A stretch of 64,000 nt of DNA, from assembly GCF_001677475.2 (NCBI RefSeq), contig NZ_CP015229.1; one strand, given 5' to 3'. The DNA comes from Escherichia coli (GTDB lineage Bacteria; Pseudomonadota; Gammaproteobacteria; Enterobacterales; Enterobacteriaceae). A model generated the notes under the pieces. It made no database searches and was not told where the DNA came from. It saw nothing but the letters and a program-made list of their open reading frames with translations. Positions 1 through 60,516 of this stretch are shown here, piece by piece (the stretch's first letter is position 1; the number at the start of each line of letters is the position of its first letter). The translations under genes and the position numbers were made by a program.

Positions 1-684
1 GCTTCGCCGCGGATCCCGCAAGCGCGTAATTTGTGGCTGATTTCACTTAAGCTCTGGAGTTGCGAAGGCGAGATTATTGATGAACAAACATTTCGTCGTA
101 GCTTCAGCGATCCGGCACTTAGCCATGCTCTTGACCGACGGGTATTCCACGAATTTTTCCAGCAGGCCGCAAAAGCGGTTGCCAGTAAAGGCATAAGCAT
201 CGCCCTCCCCCTTTCCGTTGCTGGTTTGAGTAGCGCCACACTGGTGAATGAACTGCTTGAGCAGCTGGAAAATAGCCCTCTACCACCACGGTTATTGCAT
301 CTGATTATTCCGGCAGACGCGATTTTAGATCACGCAGAAAGCGTGCAAAAACTGCGACTGGCGGGATGTCGGATCGTATTCAGTCAGGTGGGCCGCGATC
401 TGCAAATCTTCAACTCGCTGAAAGCGAATATGGCAGATTACCTGCTACTTGATGGTGAGTTATGCGCCAACGTGCAGGGAAATTTGATGGATGAGATGCT
501 GATTACGATCATTCAGGGGCACGCTCAGCGGCTCGGGATGAAGACCATCGCCGGGCCAGTAGTTTTACCCCTGGTGATGGATACGCTTTCTGGCATCGGC
601 GTCGATCTGATTTATGGCGATGTGATTGCCGATGCCCAACCGCTGGATTTGCTGGTGAATAGCAGTTATTTCGCGATTAACTAA
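1..684 (+). CDS. dgcE: C-terminal EAL-domain portion of a large GGDEF/EAL c-di-GMP protein (5' end outside window)
   Basis: Frame 1 is open from position 1 to the stop at 684 (track ORF 31..684 is the tail). Position upstream of convergent alkA matches the yegE/dgcE-alkA arrangement known from E. coli. Confidence 0.65.
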   Translation, partial: ASPRIPQARNLWLISLKLWSCEGEIIDEQTFRRSFSDPALSHALDRRVFHEFFQQAAKAVASKGISIALPLSVAGLSSATLVNELLEQLENSPLPPRLLHLIIPADAILDHAESVQKLRLAGCRIVFSQVGRDLQIFNSLKANMADYLLLDGELCANVQGNLMDEMLITIIQGHAQRLGMKTIAGPVVLPLVMDTLSGIGVDLIYGDVIADAQPLDLLVNSSYFAIN

Positions 685-721
685 GGCGTGATTCCCCATC
701 GACTGATGCGGCGTATCAGGC

Positions 722-1579
722 CTACAATTCGTCCGTTCCGTCTGGTTGCCAGCCTTCCGTATACCAGATATGCAACAGCGCATAAGAACGCCAGGGCTTC
801 CAGCGTTCGGCATAACGGCGGATTTGTGCCGGTGTCATTCCCGGAAATCGCTGTTTAATCAGATAATCATCCGGCAGGAAAACATCTTTCGCCTGCCAGC
901 CACGTAAGGCGAAATAATTCGCCGTCCAGCGCCCGATACCCGGAAAAGTTTGCAGCGTTTTCATCGCTTGCTCTACGTCGCCCGGAATTGTCATTGATAA
1001 GGTGCCCTCCAGCGCCGCATTTGCCAGATGAATCAGTGCCTCTGCCCGTTTCAACGGCATACCTAACGCTTTTAATGCCTGCGGGTCGGCTGCTGCCAGC
1101 CGCTGAGGCGTGGGGAAGCAGACATAATCCGGAAAATCATCCAGCCGTTCGCCATAAAGCTGTGCCACTCTGGCGGTCAATTTTGCCGCCATCGCCACGC
1201 TCACCAGTTGGCCTAAAATCGCCCGCACGCCCTGCTCAAAAGCATCAACACTGCCGGGTAAACGCAATCCGGGCCGCGCCGCGCCTAACTTGCCCAACGC
1301 ACCGTTAACAATCTGCGGGTTACATTGCAGATCAAACAGGCGGCTCATTTTCGCCAGACACTCTGCGGCAACAGGTTCTAAACCTGCACTTAAATTTATG
1401 TGCAGAGTATGGCGGGCTATATCCGGAATAGCAGTCACCACGCCGCGATATTCGCCCACCGCCAGACTACGGGCATAATAATCGTCAGCGACCGTTTCCA
1501 CACCGTTCACCGCACGGGCGGCAAGAAATCCCAACATCCACGACCAGTCATACGGCGGCTGCCAGTTCAGGGTATACAT
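722..1579 (-). CDS. alkA: 3-methyladenine DNA glycosylase II
   Basis: 285-aa ORF beginning MYTLNWQPPYDWSWMLGFLAARAVNGVETV, recognised as AlkA; HhH-GPD fold region present. Confidence 0.85.
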   Translation of the reverse strand: MYTLNWQPPYDWSWMLGFLAARAVNGVETVADDYYARSLAVGEYRGVVTAIPDIARHTLHINLSAGLEPVAAECLAKMSRLFDLQCNPQIVNGALGKLGAARPGLRLPGSVDAFEQGVRAILGQLVSVAMAAKLTARVAQLYGERLDDFPDYVCFPTPQRLAAADPQALKALGMPLKRAEALIHLANAALEGTLSMTIPGDVEQAMKTLQTFPGIGRWTANYFALRGWQAKDVFLPDDYLIKQRFPGMTPAQIRRYAERWKPWRSYALLHIWYTEGWQPDGTDEL

Positions 1580-1712
1580 CGCATCTCCTTGTTAATCCGC
1601 TTTCAGCATAAACGTTATTCAGACGCTACGCTTTGCTTTCATATTCCGGTTGTCGCGACGGCAACATTTCGCTAAAGTCACGCCCCTTCTTCACCGGCAT
1701 GGGGATTATTTC

Positions 1713-3065
1713 GTGTTTATTGGTTTTGATTACGGTACAGCAAACTGTTCAGTGGCGGTCATGCGCGACGGTAAGCCGCAATTACTGAAAATGGAAAACG
1801 ACAGCACGCTGCTGCCTTCAATGCTTTGCGCGCCAACGCGTGAAGCGGTAAGCGAATGGCTGTACCGCCATCATGATGTTCCGGCAGACGACGATGAAAC
1901 GCAGGCGCTGTTGCGTCGGGCGATTCGTTATAACCGCGAAGAAGATATCGATGTTACGGCGAAAAGCGTGCAGTTCGGTCTTTCCTCACTGGCACAGTAC
2001 ATTGATGATCCAGAAGAAGTGTGGTTTGTGAAATCACCAAAATCGTTCCTCGGTGCCAGCGGCTTAAAACCGCAGCAGGTAGCGCTGTTTGAGGATCTGG
2101 TCTGCGCAATGATGTTACACATTCGCCAACAGGCGCAGGCGCAGCTGCCGGAGGCAATTACTCAGGCGGTGATTGGTCGCCCGATCAACTTCCAGGGGCT
2201 GGGCGGTGATGAAGCAAACACCCAGGCGCAAGGGATTCTGGAACGCGCGGCGAAGCGTGCCGGGTTTAAGGATGTGGTATTCCAGTACGAGCCGGTCGCG
2301 GCCGGGCTGGATTACGAAGCCACCTTACAGGAAGAAAAACGGGTGCTGGTGGTGGATATCGGCGGTGGTACGACTGACTGTTCATTGCTGCTGATGGGGC
2401 CGCAGTGGCGTTCGCGTCTCGATCGTGAAGCCAGCCTGCTGGGTCACAGTGGTTGCCGTATTGGCGGTAACGATCTGGATATCGCACTGGCGTTTAAAAA
2501 CCTGATGCCGTTACTGGGCATGGGTGGCGAAACCGAAAAAGGCATCGCCCTGCCGATTCTGCCGTGGTGGAATGCGGTTGCCATCAACGACGTACCTGCG
2601 CAAAGTGATTTCTACAGTAGTGCCAACGGTCGTCTGCTTAACGATCTGGTACGCGATGCCCGCGAACCGGATAAAGTGGCCCTGTTACAGAAAGTCTGGC
2701 GTCAGCGTTTAAGCTATCGCCTGGTACGTAGCGCAGAAGAGAGCAAAATTGCGCTTTCAAGCGTAGCGGAAACCCGCGCCTCACTGCCGTTTATCAGCGA
2801 TGAACTGGCTACGCTGATTAGCCAGCAAGGGCTGGAAAGCGCCCTCAACCAGCCACTGGCGCGGATTCTGGAACAGGTGCAACTGGCGCTGGATAACGCC
2901 CAGGAAAAACCGGATGTTATCTATCTGACCGGCGGTAGCGCCCGTTCACCGCTGATTAAAAAAGCGCTGACAGAACAGTTGCCGGGCATTCCGATTGCAG
3001 GTGGCGATGACTTTGGCTCCGTCACCGCCGGGCTGGCACGCTGGGCGGAAGTGGTGTTTCGTTAA
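1713..3065 (+). CDS. yegD: Hsp70/actin-fold ATPase YegD
   Basis: Track ORF 1650..3065; GTG at 1713 gives a 450-aa product starting FIGFDYGTANCSVAV (DnaK-like phosphate-1 motif) with later DIGGGTTD motif. Start codon choice is inferred. Confidence 0.8.
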   Translation: MFIGFDYGTANCSVAVMRDGKPQLLKMENDSTLLPSMLCAPTREAVSEWLYRHHDVPADDDETQALLRRAIRYNREEDIDVTAKSVQFGLSSLAQYIDDPEEVWFVKSPKSFLGASGLKPQQVALFEDLVCAMMLHIRQQAQAQLPEAITQAVIGRPINFQGLGGDEANTQAQGILERAAKRAGFKDVVFQYEPVAAGLDYEATLQEEKRVLVVDIGGGTTDCSLLLMGPQWRSRLDREASLLGHSGCRIGGNDLDIALAFKNLMPLLGMGGETEKGIALPILPWWNAVAINDVPAQSDFYSSANGRLLNDLVRDAREPDKVALLQKVWRQRLSYRLVRSAEESKIALSSVAETRASLPFISDELATLISQQGLESALNQPLARILEQVQLALDNAQEKPDVIYLTGGSARSPLIKKALTEQLPGIPIAGGDDFGSVTAGLARWAEVVFR

Positions 3066-3077
3066 TTGAAAACTGGC

Positions 3078-5027
3078 TCAGCAGCGGCTTAAATCAGCCT
3101 GCGCCTGAGCCAGTTTTTCTGCCGCCTGACGTAACGGTTCCATCAACGGCATGGTCCGTGCTGGAGCATGAAGGCGGAATCGCTGCAACTCTGTCGCGCC
3201 GACTGTCAACGCCGATTCCAGCCGATGTCGTTTGGCGGCCATTTTTGCCATTACCGCTTGTCTGTCTGCAGGCGTTATCGCTTCATTCGGCCTGAACACA
3301 AAACGGCGTTCACAGCTCGCTTTCCAGTCGATAACCGCCTGGGTCAGATGGTCGCCAAACCCTTTCACTTGCTTAACACCACGACGGGTAACATCCGCTG
3401 CTGTTTCAATACCAAAGGACCGTAACGCCGCTTTACGCGCAGGGCCAACGCCGGGAATAGAGGCAACATCAATAAAAAATCCCTCCAGAAACTTCTGCTT
3501 CTGCCGTTCCCTTGCAGTGTCATGAAGTGCTGCCAGAGCGCGTTTCTCTTCTTCCGGTAACCCGAGAATTTCGTTCTTCATTTTTTCGAGCATCGTCCGT
3601 TTGGCGATAAAACCTTCCAGCCCGCCCAACTGTTGGATCTGGCTGACTAAATGGTCATAGTCCATTTTTGCGCGATTAAAAGCCTCTCTTCGTCGCTGGA
3701 CTTCTGCTTTGTACGCTTTGCTTGTCAGGCTGCCAATAATCCAGATAGCCGCCAGCACGGGAACCAAAATGATATAACGCGGTTCTACCTGAAGGCCGCA
3801 AAGCAGCAGCGATAATGCTGACAGTGCGATCTCAATCAGAATGATGTATTCACGCCGTAACAGGCCTAAAGGAAGCGGCCTGCCAGTCGGTTGGAAATGA
3901 TCGGGTAATGGTAATTGCAATGCTGGCGGTGCTACTGACGCCATCACCATCGCCCAGACTTTCGCCAGCACAAAATCACCACTGGTGGTAATGACCTCTT
4001 CGCCGAGATCAATAAAATAGATAACGCCTTGATTATCCAGCGCACACCACGGGCAGTCAGTCAAATGACCGGGGTAAACATGCATTGCCGAAACGGTACA
4101 TTTCTTTAACTGTTGGCGTAGTAAATCAAGTGCCGCTACCCACGCTTTTGCCGTCGGACGCGCGGTTGCCACGCCACTTTCCGTGAATGCCTGCTGAAAC
4201 ATGGCTTCAACATCGCCCGGTAACATCGACAGCGGAATAGATCGTGGCGGCGGTTTTAAACCACGCCGCTGATTATCTGACGCGTAGGCATAACGGAAAT
4301 GAGCAATATCCGTCTCCAGCGCATTCCCCGCATCAGAGATAAGCGGTACACCGGAATAAGGATGCCGACCACCAAACAAGACGTGAAAAATCAGCAACGC
4401 AAGGCCAAAATTATCGTGATTCGCGGTGCGTTCAAAGCCGACAAATGATGGCAATGTTTGCAGCTCTGGCGGCGTAAAATGCGACACGCCGACTTCGCAT
4501 AAATGCAGCGTGCCATTGGCGTTAATCTGAAAGGAGTCGCTATCAATCAACACCACTTTGCTGTCGCGACCTACCATAAAGCTGTTCTGGTTTACGTCCC
4601 CCACGACGTGCCCGTGCTCGTGAACCGTAGCAAAAGATGAAGCAATATTGCGCGCAACATAGAGTAGAAAATCCCACGCACAATGAGGGTAACTCTGGCG
4701 ACGATGTGCCGGGCTATAGATCATATGAATCGGTTCTTTACCAGAAACTTTTGGCATCATAAAACCGATAACTTTTCCGCCTCGTCCACCGTGAAGCGTT
4801 GCCTGCGGCCAGGCGACATAATTCAGCAACTGCGCGTCAGCTGTCGCAGCCATAAAGGCAAGTTTGTCCTGTTTTAATGCGGGTGGCGGCGTGTGATAAA
4901 TCTTGGCGACGCTATCGACAAACTCCTCGATATCATAAACCGCGCCTTCGCCACCTTTGCCCAGTTCACGGCCTGGCGTAACGCACTCACCAGTAGCAGT
5001 ATATAAAGTGTGTTTCATGGTAACCAC
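3078..5027 (-). CDS. yegI: Atypical Ser/Thr protein kinase with predicted TM hairpin and C-terminal helix-hairpin-helix region
   Basis: 649-aa ORF; Gly-rich GKGGEGAVY, VAKIY lysine, HVVGDVNQNSF catalytic-loop-like and DSDSF (DFG-like) motifs; hydrophobic stretch ~aa 395-440; VASIPGVGPARKAAL HhH-like motif. Confidence 0.8.
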   Translation of the reverse strand: MVTMKHTLYTATGECVTPGRELGKGGEGAVYDIEEFVDSVAKIYHTPPPALKQDKLAFMAATADAQLLNYVAWPQATLHGGRGGKVIGFMMPKVSGKEPIHMIYSPAHRRQSYPHCAWDFLLYVARNIASSFATVHEHGHVVGDVNQNSFMVGRDSKVVLIDSDSFQINANGTLHLCEVGVSHFTPPELQTLPSFVGFERTANHDNFGLALLIFHVLFGGRHPYSGVPLISDAGNALETDIAHFRYAYASDNQRRGLKPPPRSIPLSMLPGDVEAMFQQAFTESGVATARPTAKAWVAALDLLRQQLKKCTVSAMHVYPGHLTDCPWCALDNQGVIYFIDLGEEVITTSGDFVLAKVWAMVMASVAPPALQLPLPDHFQPTGRPLPLGLLRREYIILIEIALSALSLLLCGLQVEPRYIILVPVLAAIWIIGSLTSKAYKAEVQRRREAFNRAKMDYDHLVSQIQQLGGLEGFIAKRTMLEKMKNEILGLPEEEKRALAALHDTARERQKQKFLEGFFIDVASIPGVGPARKAALRSFGIETAADVTRRGVKQVKGFGDHLTQAVIDWKASCERRFVFRPNEAITPADRQAVMAKMAAKRHRLESALTVGATELQRFRLHAPARTMPLMEPLRQAAEKLAQAQADLSRC

Positions 5028-5776
5028 AGCGCCAGTGCCAACGTTTTATCATCATCGGTACGCTCGTTTACCGCCGGGCTGGACAAAAACTGCTTTAACA
5101 ATTCAGGTAATAAATCGAGTTGTTCCTGCGTTGCTGACACCAGCCCATTGAAAAACGGGGTAAAGAAAGGCACATGGGGAGAATTATCCAGCATATTTAA
5201 CGCCAGCCGCTGGATACCATCCGTAAATGCTGCAACTTTGTGCGCACGCTCAGTGCTGGTGAAAGTTTCCAGTCTGGAAACCGCATCTTCATCGGTAATG
5301 AAGTGCGTCATGTTGGCATATTCACCCACCATCGGCGTGAGCGGCAGTTGCAGACCGTGCCCCAAATCTACCACCACACCGCCGTCGCCAATCTGCATAA
5401 TCAGGGTGCCATTAGCTGATGAAATCAATCCCAGAAACGTGCAGGCAAAATCGCGAACAGCTAATTCTTTGGCTTCCGCCTCGGCAAAAAGTCGCTGACG
5501 AACGGTCAGCACAATATCCGTTGCGAGGACATCATTGAGCCCCAATTCCCCGCCCTGCACTTTTTGCATCATATAAGCCATCGCTTCATTGACGGCGAGC
5601 ATCGCGCCTTCGCCACCCTGCGAGACGCTACCTGCGCCATCGGCGACAAATACCGACAATAATGGCTGCTGGTCATTTAGCCAGGCAACCTGCATCTGGC
5701 AGGCATCCTGGCAAGGCAAGTCCGCGCTGATGTGCGACGTTCCAACGGTTGATGCATAGACCAGACGCCAGCTCAC
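5015..5776 (-). CDS. pphC: PP2C-family Ser/Thr protein phosphatase
   Basis: 253-aa ORF with VADGAGS and IGDGG metal-binding motifs typical of PP2C; its stop overlaps the yegI start by 13 nt. Confidence 0.8.
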
Positions 5777-6432
5777 ACTGACGTCCAGCCTTTTGGCGCT
5801 TCCAGCACAACTTCCGTTCCCGGCGTGGAGCGGGAAACCGAACGCAGCGAACTGGATAACCAGCTAAACAGTTCACGGAATTGTAATCCCTGCAGTGGCA
5901 AAGGCTGACGAACGCTGATTTGTGCCAGCGTCTTCATATCCGCCCCCTGAACGCCGATGGCAAAGAAGGCAAACTTCTTACCTTCTTCCCCCTGAAACAC
6001 TTTGTTGGCGGCTGCCTGCCACTCATCGGTTGGTGCACCATCAGTGATCATGAAAATCCACGGACGATAATAGGAAATACCATTGGCGCGATACTCACGT
6101 TTGCGCTCCTCAACCATATCCAGGGCTTTGGTAATGGCGGCCCCCATTGGTGTATCGCCCTGGGCAAACAGGATGGGCGGGAAAAAGTTAGCGGCGCTGG
6201 TAAAGGGTTGTTCCACATGCACTGGGCCGAACGTCACAATACCAAGTTCCACTCTTTTTAAGGCCAGCGGGTCGGCAAGCAGCTCATCGCGAAAGGTAAC
6301 CAATCCGGCGTTAAGTTCATTAATGGGTCTACCGTTCATCGAACCAGAAACATCCAGCAGCAAAATGCAGGGGCAACGTGGTTCCGGGTTACTGGCAAAA
6401 TCGCTGGTGGCAAACGTGATTTGTTCGCTCAT
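5773..6432 (-). CDS. yegL: von Willebrand factor A (VWA) domain protein
   Basis: 219-aa ORF with MIDAS motif [11 protein letters not shown]; its stop overlaps the pphC start (4-nt overlap), indicating translational coupling. Confidence 0.8.
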
Positions 6433-6613
6433 AAGAAATCCTTTCTTAGAGAATTATTGAGGTCCGGTATCATACCGATTGCAATAATGAAATAAGAGCA
6501 AACGAAGAAACTTTCAGAATTAGTCCCGGCGGCGCAGAAAATTTTGCTATTCGCCTCGCAAGAACGGAGAGCCGTCGATTGACACTAAGGGCGGAGTGAC
6601 ATAATTTCAGGAG

Positions 6614-6758
6614 TGAGGGTTAGGGAGAGGTTTCCCCCTCCCCCTGGTGTTCTTAGTAAGCCTGGAAGCTAATCACTAAGAGTATCACCAGTATGATGAC
6701 GTGCTTCATCATAACCCTTTCCTTATTAAAAGCCCTCTTCTCCGGGAGAGGCTTTCCC
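6614..6758 (+). ncRNA. sibA: Sib antitoxin sRNA antisense to ibs copy 1 (ends approximate)
   Basis: Sigma70-like promoter TTGACA (6579-6584), 17-nt spacer, TAATTT (6602-6607) on the plus strand; imperfect GC-rich hairpin plus short T-run at ~6731-6758; fully antisense to the ibs ORF. Confidence 0.6.
6653..6712 (-). CDS. ibsA: Ibs type I toxin, 19 aa (MMKHVIILVILLVISFQAY)
   Basis: Reverse complement of 6653..6712 translates to MMKHVIILVILLVISFQAY plus TAA; this matches the IbsA peptide as I recall it. Below the 60-aa track cutoff. Confidence 0.8.
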   Translation of the reverse strand: MMKHVIILVILLVISFQAY

Positions 6759-6948
6759 GTTTCAGCGTCCCGCTGAAATCGTCGGCTTACCTCCTTTCGC
6801 CCTGAATGCAGTCTATCGCTAACGCGTGAACAAAATAGTTTCCTCTGTGATTATTGCGTAACGACTCGCAAAGAATATTTGCTGGCAGGATCGCAGACTG
6901 CAAAGCCTGCAGATTGACAATCTTATCGTGAAGGCATACTTTCAGGAG

Positions 6949-7092
6949 TGAGGGTAGAGCGGGGGTTCCCCCGCCCTGGTAGTCTTAGTAAGCCGGGAAG
7001 CTTATGACTAAGAGCACCACGATGATGATCCACTTCATCATGACCCTTTCCTTATTTAAGGCCCCTTCCTCGGGAGGGGCTTTCCCGTTTCA
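6949..7092 (+). ncRNA. sibB: Sib antitoxin sRNA antisense to ibs copy 2 (ends approximate)
   Basis: Promoter TTGACA (6914-6919), 17 nt, TACTTT (6937-6942); hairpin gcccct/aggggc at ~7061-7080 followed by cttt. Confidence 0.6.
6985..7041 (-). CDS. ibsB: Ibs type I toxin, 18 aa (MMKWIIIVVLLVISFPAY)
   Basis: Reverse complement translates to MMKWIIIVVLLVISFPAY plus TAA; close to IbsB as I recall it. Confidence 0.75.
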   Translation of the reverse strand: MMKWIIIVVLLVISFPAY

Positions 7093-7276
7093 GCGTCCCG
7101 CTGAAATCATCGGCTTACCTCCTTTCGCCCTGAATGCAGTCTATCGCTGACTTGCGGATAAAATAGTTTCACATGTGATTATTGCGTAGCGTCTCGCAAA
7201 GAATATTTGCTGGCAGGATCGCAGACTGCAAAGCCTGCAGATTGACAATCTTATCGTGAAGGCATACTTTCAGGAG

Positions 7277-7416
7277 TGAGGGTAGAGCGGGGTTTCCCCC
7301 GCCCTGGTAGTCTTAGTAAGCTGGCCAGCTAATGACTAAGAGCACCACGATGATGAGTATCTTCATCATGACCCTTTCCTTATTTAAGACCCCTTCCTCG
7401 GGAGGGGCTTTCCCGT
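7277..7416 (+). ncRNA. Sib antitoxin sRNA antisense to ibs copy 3 (ends approximate)
   Basis: Promoter TTGACA (7242-7247), 17 nt, TACTTT (7265-7270); hairpin ccccttcctcgggagggg at ~7390-7408 followed by ctttcccgttt. Confidence 0.55.
7313..7369 (-). CDS. Ibs type I toxin, 18 aa (MMKILIIVVLLVISWPAY), third copy
   Basis: Reverse complement translates to MMKILIIVVLLVISWPAY plus TAA. Confidence 0.75.
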   Translation of the reverse strand: MMKILIIVVLLVISWPAY

Positions 7417-7576
7417 TTCAGCGTCCCGCTGAAATCGTCGGCTTACCTCCTTTCGCCATGCAAGCAGTCTATCGCTAACGCGTAGATAAAATAGTTTCAT
7501 GTGTTATTACTGGATGCGTGCTCGCAAATGTGCCCGTCATTCAGACGATTCCCGACAGTGTTTCATAATTCCTCCA

Positions 7577-7647: not shown

Positions 7648-8895
7648 ATGAAAGGCAGTTATAAATCCCGTTGGGTAATCGTAATCGTGGTGGTTATCGC
7701 CGCCATCGCCGCATTCTGGTTCTGGCAAGGCCGCAATGACTCCCGGAGTGCAGCCCCAGGGGCGACGAAACAAGCGCAGCAATCGCCAGCGGGTGGTCGC
7801 CGTGGTATGCGTTCCGGCCCATTAGCCCCGGTTCAGGCGGCGACCGCCGTAGAACAGGCAGTTCCGCGTTACCTCACCGGGCTTGGCACCATTACCGCCG
7901 CTAATACTGTTACGGTGCGCAGCCGCGTGGACGGTCAACTGATGGCGTTGCATTTCCAGGAAGGCCAGCAGGTCAAAGCAGGCGATTTATTGGCAGAAAT
8001 TGACCCCAGCCAGTTCAAAGTTGCATTAGCACAAGCCCAGGGCCAACTGGCAAAAGATAAAGCCACGCTTGCCAACGCCCGCCGTGACCTGGCGCGTTAT
8101 CAACAACTGGTAAAAACCAATCTCGTCTCCCGCCAGGAGCTGGATGCCCAACAAGCGCTGGTCAGTGAAACCGAAGGCACCATTAAGGCTGATGAAGCAA
8201 GCGTCGCCAGCGCACAGCTGCAACTCGACTGGAGCCGTATTACCGCACCAGTCGATGGTCGCGTTGGTCTCAAGCAGGTTGATGTTGGTAACCAAATCTC
8301 CAGTGGTGATACCACCGGGATTGTGGTGATCACCCAGACGCATCCTATCGATTTGCTCTTTACCCTGCCGGAAAGCGATATCGCTACCGTCGTGCAGGCG
8401 CAAAAAGCCGGGAAACCGCTGGTGGTAGAAGCCTGGGATCGCACCAATTCAAAGAAATTAAGCGAAGGCACGCTGTTAAGTCTCGATAACCAAATCGATG
8501 CCACAACCGGTACGATTAAAGTGAAAGCACGCTTTAATAATCAGGATGATGCGCTGTTTCCCAATCAGTTTGTTAACGCGCGCATGTTAGTCGACACCGA
8601 ACAAAACGCCGTAGTGATCCCAACAGCCGCCCTGCAAATGGGCAATGAAGGCCATTTTGTCTGGGTGCTGAATAGCGAAAACAAGGTCAGCAAACATCTG
8701 GTGACGCCGGGCATTCAGGACAGTCAGAAAGTGGTGATCCGTGCAGGTATTTCTGCGGGCGATCGCGTGGTGACAGACGGCATTGATCGCCTGACCGAAG
8801 GGGCGAAAGTGGAAGTGGTGGAAGCCCAGAGCGCCACTACTCCGGAAGAGAAAGCCACCAGCCGCGAATACGCGAAAAAAGGAGCACGCTCCTGA
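7648..8895 (+). CDS. mdtA: RND efflux membrane fusion protein
   Basis: Track ORF 7501..8895; ATG at 7648 gives 415 aa starting [26 protein letters not shown] (signal anchor). Stop overlaps the mdtB start. Confidence 0.9.
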
Positions 8896-20711: not shown

Positions 20712-20745
20712 TACAGCTGCATTTATTAAGGTTATCATCCGTTTC

Positions 20746-20832
20746 GCTGAAAAACATAACCCATAAAATGCTAGCTGTACCAGGAACCACCTCCTTAGCC
20801 TGTGTAATCTCCCTTACACGGGCTTATTTTTT
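20746..20832 (+). ncRNA. cyaR: CyaR (RyeE) Hfq-dependent sRNA
   Basis: gctgaaaaacataacccataaaatgctagctgtaccaggaaccacctccttagcctgtgtaatctcccttacacgggcttatttttt matches the CyaR sequence as I recall it, including the terminal hairpin and U-tail. Confidence 0.85.
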
Positions 20833-29285: not shown

Positions 29286-29432
<147 letters not shown>

Positions 29433-37239: not shown

Positions 37240-37400
37240 CCTGCCATAACGTGAAGAAGCAATGACCTGGTGGTCCGTGACTTCCCTACGCTGGCATTAT
37301 CCAGATCAGGTGATACGGGTATTTCTCAGCCTTCACGCAGAAGGGCACCCCGAGTCGTTTGGTTGCGATGATAAATCGCAGAGGAGGATGGTAATGTCCA
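37240..37400 (-). promoter_or_regulatory. TPP (THI-box) riboswitch in the thiM leader
   Basis: Minus-strand sequence ...ggggtgcccttctgcgtgaaggctgagaaatacccgtatcacctgatctggataatgccagcgtagggaag... matches the thiM TPP aptamer (CUGAGA and conserved helices), at ~37281-37357. Confidence 0.85.
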
Positions 37401-60104: not shown

Positions 60105-60194
60105 TTACTTCAACAAATCAATCAACCGTAACAGAGCCACTAATAGCTCCAGTACAGCAATGAGCACGGTTAACTTTTGTGTCAGCGTGTCCAT
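60105..60194 (-). CDS. Candidate 29-aa hydrophobic/amphipathic peptide (MDTLTQKLTVLIAVLELLVALLRLIDLLK)
   Basis: Minus-strand ATG at 60194 preceded by AAGGAG with 5-nt spacing; 29 codons then TAA. Not in the track (below 60 aa). Composition resembles small membrane peptides and type I toxins. Confidence 0.4.
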   Translation of the reverse strand: MDTLTQKLTVLIAVLELLVALLRLIDLLK

Positions 60195-60490
60195 CCGCTC
60201 TCCTTATTAAGGAGCGCAATACCAGCACCTTACCCTTACACTGCCTGTCGATACTGGTTTACGTATGTTGGACCACGATGTTGCACTCCGGATCAGGGCA
60301 CCACCTGCAGCACCACCCGTCCGGTAGCCAGGACTTAAAATTGGTCCGATCCGGCGCAACGTCCCAACCGTCTGGATTATAAATCTCATTATCTTAATTG
60401 CAACGGGGTCCACCGATGGTTATAATTCGTTCGTTGGAACACGATGTTGCACAGGCTGCGGTGTTGGGCCTGAAAATAGTAAATAAAAGA

Positions 60491-60516
60491 ACCTGCCTCA
60501 CCAGCAGGTTTTTTTA
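60491..60516 (+). terminator. Rho-independent terminator on the plus strand upstream of yehL
   Basis: Stem acctgc/gcaggt with 7-nt loop followed by ttttttt (60510-60516); implies a plus-strand transcript ending here with no annotated gene. Confidence 0.6.

Follow-up and report, generated by a model that had tools for sequence, protein, structure and literature searches.

A three-unit form of the ibs/sib type I toxin–antitoxin locus between yegL and mdtA in Escherichia coli

The intergenic region between yegL and mdtA in the 64,000-nucleotide stretch of Escherichia coli DNA considered here (contig NZ_CP015229.1, assembly GCF_001677475.2; the whole stretch is called the window below) is, with a probability that we put at about 0.93, the chromosomal ibsA/sibA–ibsB/sibB type I toxin–antitoxin locus in a common three-unit allelic form. 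Three tandem units each carry an intact open reading frame (ORF) for a small Ibs toxin on the minus strand and a match to the Sib antisense RNA family on the plus strand. A preliminary description made from the sequence of the window had proposed three Ibs/Sib type I units, and this is borne out by three matches to Rfam family RF00113, three intact Ibs ORFs and a tandem array with a period of 328 nt. The family, the locus, its tandem duplication, its copy-number variation and the exact peptides are all already known or annotated.

Anatomy and copy number of the array

Tandem Repeats Finder reports a single array at 6600–7528 (period 328, 2.8 copies, 88% matches), and a repeat search returned three-copy families with a start-to-start spacing of 328–335 nt. 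By homology to annotated genomes, the array is flanked by a yegL homologue (5773–6432, minus strand) and by mdtA, whose ATG lies at 7649 on the plus strand; this is the location of the ibsA/ibsB locus, and the synteny is the same in annotated genomes. The span of 6605–7500 proposed earlier captured the array but began too late, as the true start is the first Sib −35 hexamer (Table 1). Over 168 nt, unit 1 shows no difference from K-12 unit A, and units 2 and 3 are the most closely related pair within the window (92% over 300 nt). The proposal that the units are related by duplication and diversification is supported. An assembly artefact was ruled out, as thousands of complete genomes show the same arrangement.

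All three units match the covariance model of RF00113 (SIB_RNA) over its full length (positions 1–147) on the plus strand, with E-values of 1e-28 to 1e-31 and scores above the gathering score of 56. Model positions 1–6 are UUGACA, the −35 hexamer, and the model stops before the Sib terminator. The coordinates of the Rfam matches are therefore shifted upstream by about 36 nt and are not transcript boundaries. The ends of the Sib RNAs in Table 1 were placed by homology to the 141-nt SibC, whose +1 and 3′ end were located on K-12 sibC by means of the primer sequences given in Han 2010. The predicted folds of Sib1, Sib2 and Sib3 have energies of −54.7, −62.2 and −56.1 kcal/mol (z −4.4, −4.5 and −3.7), and have in common a closing P1 helix, three internal hairpins, the single-stranded UCCUUAUUUAAG and a GC-rich terminator hairpin. 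The Sib region of unit 3 is found with one mismatch in 139 nt in 12 records.

Opposite each predicted Sib RNA, and wholly inside it, lies a hydrophobic ORF of 18–19 amino acids (MMK...[A/T]Y). All three ORFs are intact, and each ATG is preceded by AAGGAAAGGG at a distance of 3 nt. The peptides were assigned to the toxin family because RefSeq holds identical proteins under the names IbsA or Ibs family toxin, and the three peptides as first read agree letter for letter with those in Table 1. In K-12, overproduced Ibs is toxic and Sib represses it (PMC4147584, PMC2943612, PMC8309996); the three peptides of the window would be expected to be toxic as well.

Table 1. Positions of the array, its predicted promoters and transcripts, and its ORFs in the window
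Feature	Position	Strand	Details and basis
Whole tandem array, three ~328-bp ibs/sib units	6579–7528		Tandem Repeats Finder, repeat families, flank homology
Sib unit 1 (sibA) promoter	6579–6607	+	TTGACA 6579–6584, 17-nt spacer, TAATTT 6602–6607
SibA-type antisense RNA, ~144 nt	6615–6758	+	Ends predicted by SibC homology; Rfam match 6579–6727, 149.5 bits
ibsA ORF, 19 amino acids	6653–6712	−	MMKHVIILVILLVISFQAY; peptide same as WP_010723109.1 (IbsA)
ibs unit 1 5′ untranslated region and putative weak promoter	6713–6812	−	−10-like GACGAT 6783–6778; predicted
Sib unit 2 promoter	6914–6942	+	TTGACA 6914–6919, 17-nt spacer, TACTTT 6937–6942
Sib unit 2 antisense RNA, ~137 nt	6950–7086	+	SibC homology; Rfam match 6914–7056, 137.8 bits
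ibs unit 2 ORF, 18 amino acids	6985–7041	−	MMKWIIIVVLLVISFPAY; peptide same as WP_012767741.1 (Ibs family toxin)
ibs unit 2 5′ untranslated region and putative promoter	7042–7140	−	−10-like GATGAT 7111–7106; predicted
Sib unit 3 promoter	7242–7270	+	TTGACA 7242–7247, 17-nt spacer, TACTTT 7265–7270
Sib unit 3 antisense RNA, ~137 nt	7278–7414	+	SibC homology; Rfam match 7242–7384, 139.3 bits
ibs unit 3 ORF, 18 amino acids	7313–7369	−	MMKILIIVVLLVISWPAY; peptide same as WP_100692412.1 (strain 504838)
ibs unit 3 5′ untranslated region and putative promoter	7370–7468	−	−10-like GACGAT 7439–7434; predicted

Each Sib RNA has its own predicted promoter, and the intrinsic terminator hairpin appears in all three folds. 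The geometry of these promoters (17-nt spacer, 7 nt from the −10 to the predicted start) is the same as that of sibC. Over the 50 nt from −45 to +5 relative to the predicted start, the unit 1 promoter shows no difference from that of K-12 sibA. Those of units 2 and 3 match K-12 sibB at every position from the −35 hexamer up to the predicted +1, and the unit 3 promoter is identical throughout to that of unit 2. The Sib promoters had been described as consensus, which holds for the perfect TTGACA and the spacing but not for the −10 hexamers. The promoters of Sib2 and Sib3 had also been placed inside the preceding unit. They lie instead in the spacer between the units, some 140 nt past the predicted transcription start site of the preceding ibs, back to back with its promoter and clear of the predicted transcripts of that unit. 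On the minus strand, the proximal 100 nt upstream of ibs differ at one position from K-12 ibsA in unit 1, and at five and two positions from ibsB in units 2 and 3, respectively. We infer from the +1 primers of ibsC and ibsD (Han 2010, PMC2943612) that ibs transcription would start at about 6770–6776, 7098–7104 and 7426–7432.

Some observations weigh against the identification of the region as this locus. A generic scan for sigma-70 promoters and terminators missed every Sib promoter and terminator on the plus strand; for the promoters, the miss is attributed to −10 hexamers (TAATTT and TACTTT) that match the consensus at just 3 of 6 positions. The putative ibs promoters are weak matches placed by homology. 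Finally, the strain background is not exactly represented among complete E. coli genomes. The first 20,000 nt of the window show E. coli gene order, and across these 20 kb none of 5,426 complete E. coli genomes exceeds 97.6% identity; the lineage of the window thus seems not to be closely represented in that set, and possibly belongs to a divergent clade.

The yegL–mdtA array varies in copy number across E. coli. Exact-allele counting by short megablast was rejected because local alignments trim terminal mismatches, and a systematic sample was used instead, in which 60 genomes were taken at even steps down the ranking of a flank-anchored query from 5,423 complete E. coli genomes. Two units were found in 27 of the 60 (including K-12 RV308 and B2-type arrays without IbsA), three units in 22 (three O157:H7 strains among them), four units in seven and one unit in one; in the other three, the locus was not joined or partial. 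By megablast, the whole intergenic region has matches in 5,419 of 5,426 complete E. coli genomes, and the three-unit region is matched in one piece at ≥95% identity in 2,329 of 5,422 records. Three units are one of the two commonest states of the locus, at about 37–43% of genomes. As stated in the preliminary description, K-12 has two units here: RV308 and the MG1655 derivative MGY both do, and the two units of MGY encode IbsA and IbsB (MMKLLIIVVLLVISFPAY). The novelty that the description implied for a third unit does not hold, given these frequencies, the identical triple of peptides in strain 504838, and the RefSeq annotation of ORFs in yegL–mdtA arrays as "IbsA" or "type I toxin-antitoxin system Ibs family toxin". 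Taken literally, three units are the state neither of K-12 nor of the majority of strains, yet three is no exception. In agreement with such variation, tandem duplication of ibs–sib has been described and the number of Ibs genes differs between strains (six in EDL933, seven in Sakai, seven in S. boydii and four in S. flexneri; PMC2887945).

The flanks of the array are unjoined in about 5% of records (272 of 5,423). E. coli TB354 (NZ_AP038814.1) is one of these cases. At positions 1–4785 of its record, a tyrosine integrase, an IS3 transposase, an excisionase and other phage genes lie about 340 nt upstream of mdtA, in the usual position of the ibs/sib array. In some strains, prophages may thus integrate within the array or at its edge.

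Loop variation and RNA recognition

By analogy with the K-12 units, each unit of the window would encode an Ibs membrane toxin, and the Sib RNA of about 140 nt, transcribed from its own promoter, would cover the whole ibs ORF and its ribosome-binding site. First contact would be made through TRD1, a hairpin loop facing the C-terminal codons of ibs, and through TRD2, a single-stranded stretch facing the Shine–Dalgarno sequence and the start codon. The duplex would then extend, translation would be blocked and RNase III would cut, thereby turning off toxin synthesis, as described for K-12 (PMC2943612, PMC4147584). In K-12, TRD1 and TRD2 act independently and either is sufficient for repression, and a 3-nt change in TRD1 switches specificity (Han et al., PMC2943612).

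TRD1 (+46 to +68) and TRD2 (+99 to +115) of SibC were mapped onto the three units. Both are present in every unit and complementary to ibs in cis, a complementarity that follows automatically from the overlap of the two genes. In TRD1, units 2 and 3 are mismatched at 4 of 23 positions. The 20 aligned columns that cover the 17-nt TRD2, by contrast, hold no difference between the two, which have an identical run of 28 nt there. Conversely, every non-cognate pair among K-12 SibA–E has at least three mismatches in TRD2 and at least four in TRD1. Discrimination between non-cognate partners at both regions is therefore not expected of units 2 and 3, and it is a property of the K-12 set and not a mark of membership in the family. 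Since the TRD2 of units 2 and 3 is identical, the findings of Han et al. lead to the prediction that Sib2 would repress ibs3 and Sib3 would repress ibs2 through TRD2.

Variation among units of the B type, to which units 2 and 3 belong, was followed in an alignment of 25 units from 13 genomes and the window. Within the Sib transcript, 8 of 20 positions in the apical loops of the predicted fold are variable, versus 8 of 117 elsewhere (Fisher p = 3e-4), in a sample that is ad hoc, with units that are related and not independent, and with a structure predicted from one unit. The loops also face the variable residues of the peptide. Residues 15–16 are encoded exactly opposite the loop of the predicted hairpin that corresponds to TRD1, and residues 4–5 opposite the loop of a predicted AUGAUGA/UCAUCAU hairpin. 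Codons 6–11 (7006–7029 of the window in unit 2) have no substitutions, synonymous ones included, in E. coli and in four cryptic-clade genomes, whereas the loop codons on either side of them show multi-nucleotide replacements.

Because the variable residues face Sib loops and a 3-nt change in TRD1 is enough to switch specificity, the differences between Ibs peptides may largely be the coding shadow of selection on RNA–RNA recognition. Their coincidence with the loops is as much a sign of RNA recognition as of toxin function, if not more. The preliminary description spoke of distinct toxin variants, which is correct for the peptides as such.

The peptide differences could instead matter mainly for the toxins, for instance for their membrane targets or potencies, and less for RNA recognition. 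The swaps are non-conservative and involve aromatic residues (F/W/Y at residue 15, W/L/I at residue 4), the toxicity of IbsC needs C-terminal residues (PMC8309996), and differing functions of the Ibs proteins were raised as a possibility by Han et al. (PMC2943612). We consider this explanation unlikely, though it deserves attention, in view of the concentration of variable nucleotides in the predicted apical loops and of the fact that one of these loops is the experimentally defined TRD1 with its specificity switch (PMC2943612). In addition, the N-terminal residues of IbsC are largely dispensable for its toxicity (PMC8309996). The explanations by toxin function and by RNA recognition are not mutually exclusive.

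The invariance of codons 6–11 also bears on whether all three units are maintained. It argues for constraint, and together with other features it makes it very improbable that one or two units are decaying, non-functional copies beside a single active pair. Such decay has precedents, as chromosomal copies of hok/sok are often degenerate (PMC2887945) and K-12 ibsA was reported to be dispensable or cross-covered (PMC2943612), and the −10 hexamers of Sib2 and Sib3 are poor. However, the three ORFs are intact and each has a Shine–Dalgarno sequence, every Sib RNA scores more than 80 bits above the Rfam gathering threshold, and little or nothing separates the promoters and upstream regions from those of the K-12 units.

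Allele pool and age of the locus

The sampled B-type peptides vary at residues 4–5 (LL, WI, IL or LV), 13 (I or V) and 15 (F, W, Y or L). Their alleles form a small pool that occurs in several combinations, and the order of the alleles along the array differs between strains. Many two-unit genomes, apparently of the B2 type (among them Nissle 1917, clone D i14 and ST95-32), are without an IbsA-type unit and carry two B-type units, with LL..Y and WI..F peptides; thus, "two units" does not mean the same in K-12 and in these strains. The peptide of unit 2 (WI..F) is also found in Nissle 1917 and in E. whittamii, and that of unit 3 (IL..W) in Escherichia sp. E1V33 and E. coli E69. In E. whittamii, E1V33 and E69, the flanks are only 92–94% identical to the window, as is the cryptic-clade locus of MOD1-EC7003, so that these loci are further from the window than its best E. 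coli match. Given that these peptides are common to cryptic Escherichia clades, the locus is old and its alleles predate the diversification of E. coli.

Further out, Salmonella enterica subsp. diarizonae and Pseudocitrobacter faecalis have one or two units just upstream of mdtA. A scan of genome contigs with a conserved 24-nt pattern covering Sib and the Shine–Dalgarno sequence returned single-match stretches only, without a standard E. coli representative, although typical E. coli has at least two copies of the pattern and the window has three. The scan brought up Ibs-like ORFs (MMK[HYLVQR]VIIL...) in Citrobacter, Kluyvera, Phytobacter, Pseudocitrobacter and Salmonella diarizonae.

The array is thus an old copy-number polymorphism, in which the third unit is not a recent private duplication. 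The idea that unit 3 arose recently in this strain from ibsB/sibB and has since diverged is suggested by the two units of K-12 and by the closeness of units 2 and 3 to each other, but it is largely refuted, and we give it hardly any weight, since these units are about 8% apart (far above the between-strain divergence of the flanking DNA), each peptide is common to other lineages, about half of the genomes sampled have three or four units, and the same alleles appear in differing orders across strains.

Unequal crossing-over between the 328-bp repeats would be the likely cause of the range from one to four units, with units drawn from a small set of old alleles, distinguished mainly by the two Sib hairpin loops. 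Put together with the loop data, this leads to a tentative proposal, to which we give somewhat less than even odds. The array could be a recombining cassette system, with a small, ancient pool of B-type alleles whose number and order are shuffled by unequal crossing-over, with diversity kept in the Sib loops (TRD1/P5 and P6), with peptide differences that are largely a by-product, and with B-type Sib RNAs that cross-protect through an identical TRD2. If so, multi-copy arrays would be partly redundant antitoxin networks and not insulated pairs, contrary to the cognate-only picture from K-12. The loop-focused variation and the common TRD2 are small refinements and do not amount to a new kind of system.

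As a discovery, the array carries little weight, being a real but ordinary locus. It matters for how experiments on Ibs and Sib are read. K-12, the reference for all of them, has the two-unit form, which is a minority-to-plurality state, whereas about half of genomes have three or four units with a TRD2 common to the B-type Sib RNAs. For this reason, the published rule that Sib represses only its cognate ibs may not generalise and may fail in most natural strains. As the differences between the toxin variants coincide exactly with the loops for RNA recognition, functional comparisons of Ibs peptides must separate effects of the peptide from effects of the RNA.

Comparison with known systems

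Among other matches in the window above the Rfam gathering score are the CyaR/RyeE small RNA (20744–20829, plus strand), a TPP riboswitch (37266–37362, minus strand) and naRNA4 (29341–29411, minus strand), all of them expected for an E. coli chromosome. A second type I system is also present. An Rfam OrzO-P match (60440–60515, plus strand, 101 bits), which appears to be single-copy in the window, adjoins a ZorO/ZorP-like ORF of 29 amino acids (MDTLTQKLTVLIAVLELLVALLRLIDLLK; 60105–60194, minus strand).

The closest relative of the array is the ibsA/sibA–ibsB/sibB locus of K-12, which was reportedly described by Fozo et al. in 2008. The two have in common the position between yegL and mdtA, the overlapping sense/antisense layout and the Rfam family. 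They differ in the number of units, three versus two, and neither B-type peptide of the window equals K-12 IbsB: compared with it, unit 2 has WI at residues 4–5, and unit 3 has IL for LL at residues 4–5 and W at residue 15. The identical TRD2 of units 2 and 3 also sets the array apart from the non-cognate pairs of K-12. Among other strains, 504838 (NZ_CP025856.1) has the same locus, the same number of units and the identical peptide triple (WP_010723109.1, WP_012767741.1 and WP_100692412.1); the whole region is 97.5% identical to that of 504838, and its best identity to any record is 99.1%. The O157:H7 strains and the O26 strain RM10386 likewise have three units at the same locus; in three-unit strains other than 504838, the alleles are combined differently (e.g., LL..F and LL..Y in O26).

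The ldr/rdl (LDR repeats) and zorO/orzO–zorP/orzP systems resemble the array in having a small hydrophobic toxin and an antisense RNA, tandem copies in one intergenic region and a strain-variable number (PMC2887945). For instance, K-12 MG1655 does not have the zor/orz locus, and O157:H7 EDL933 carries it as a tandem duplication (PMC2887945). Unlike Orz and Rdl, which pair with the 5′ untranslated region, Sib covers the entire ORF and ribosome-binding site in cis, and the toxin families are unrelated.

The pattern of variation, for its part, recalls the antisense systems of plasmids. CopA/CopT of plasmid R1 and RNAI/RNAII of ColE1 also concentrate variation in the hairpin loops of first contact, which avoids cross-talk. 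In contrast to these, the loops of ibs/sib also face coding sequence, so that loop variation alters the peptide, and a kissing mechanism would be hypothetical for these units.

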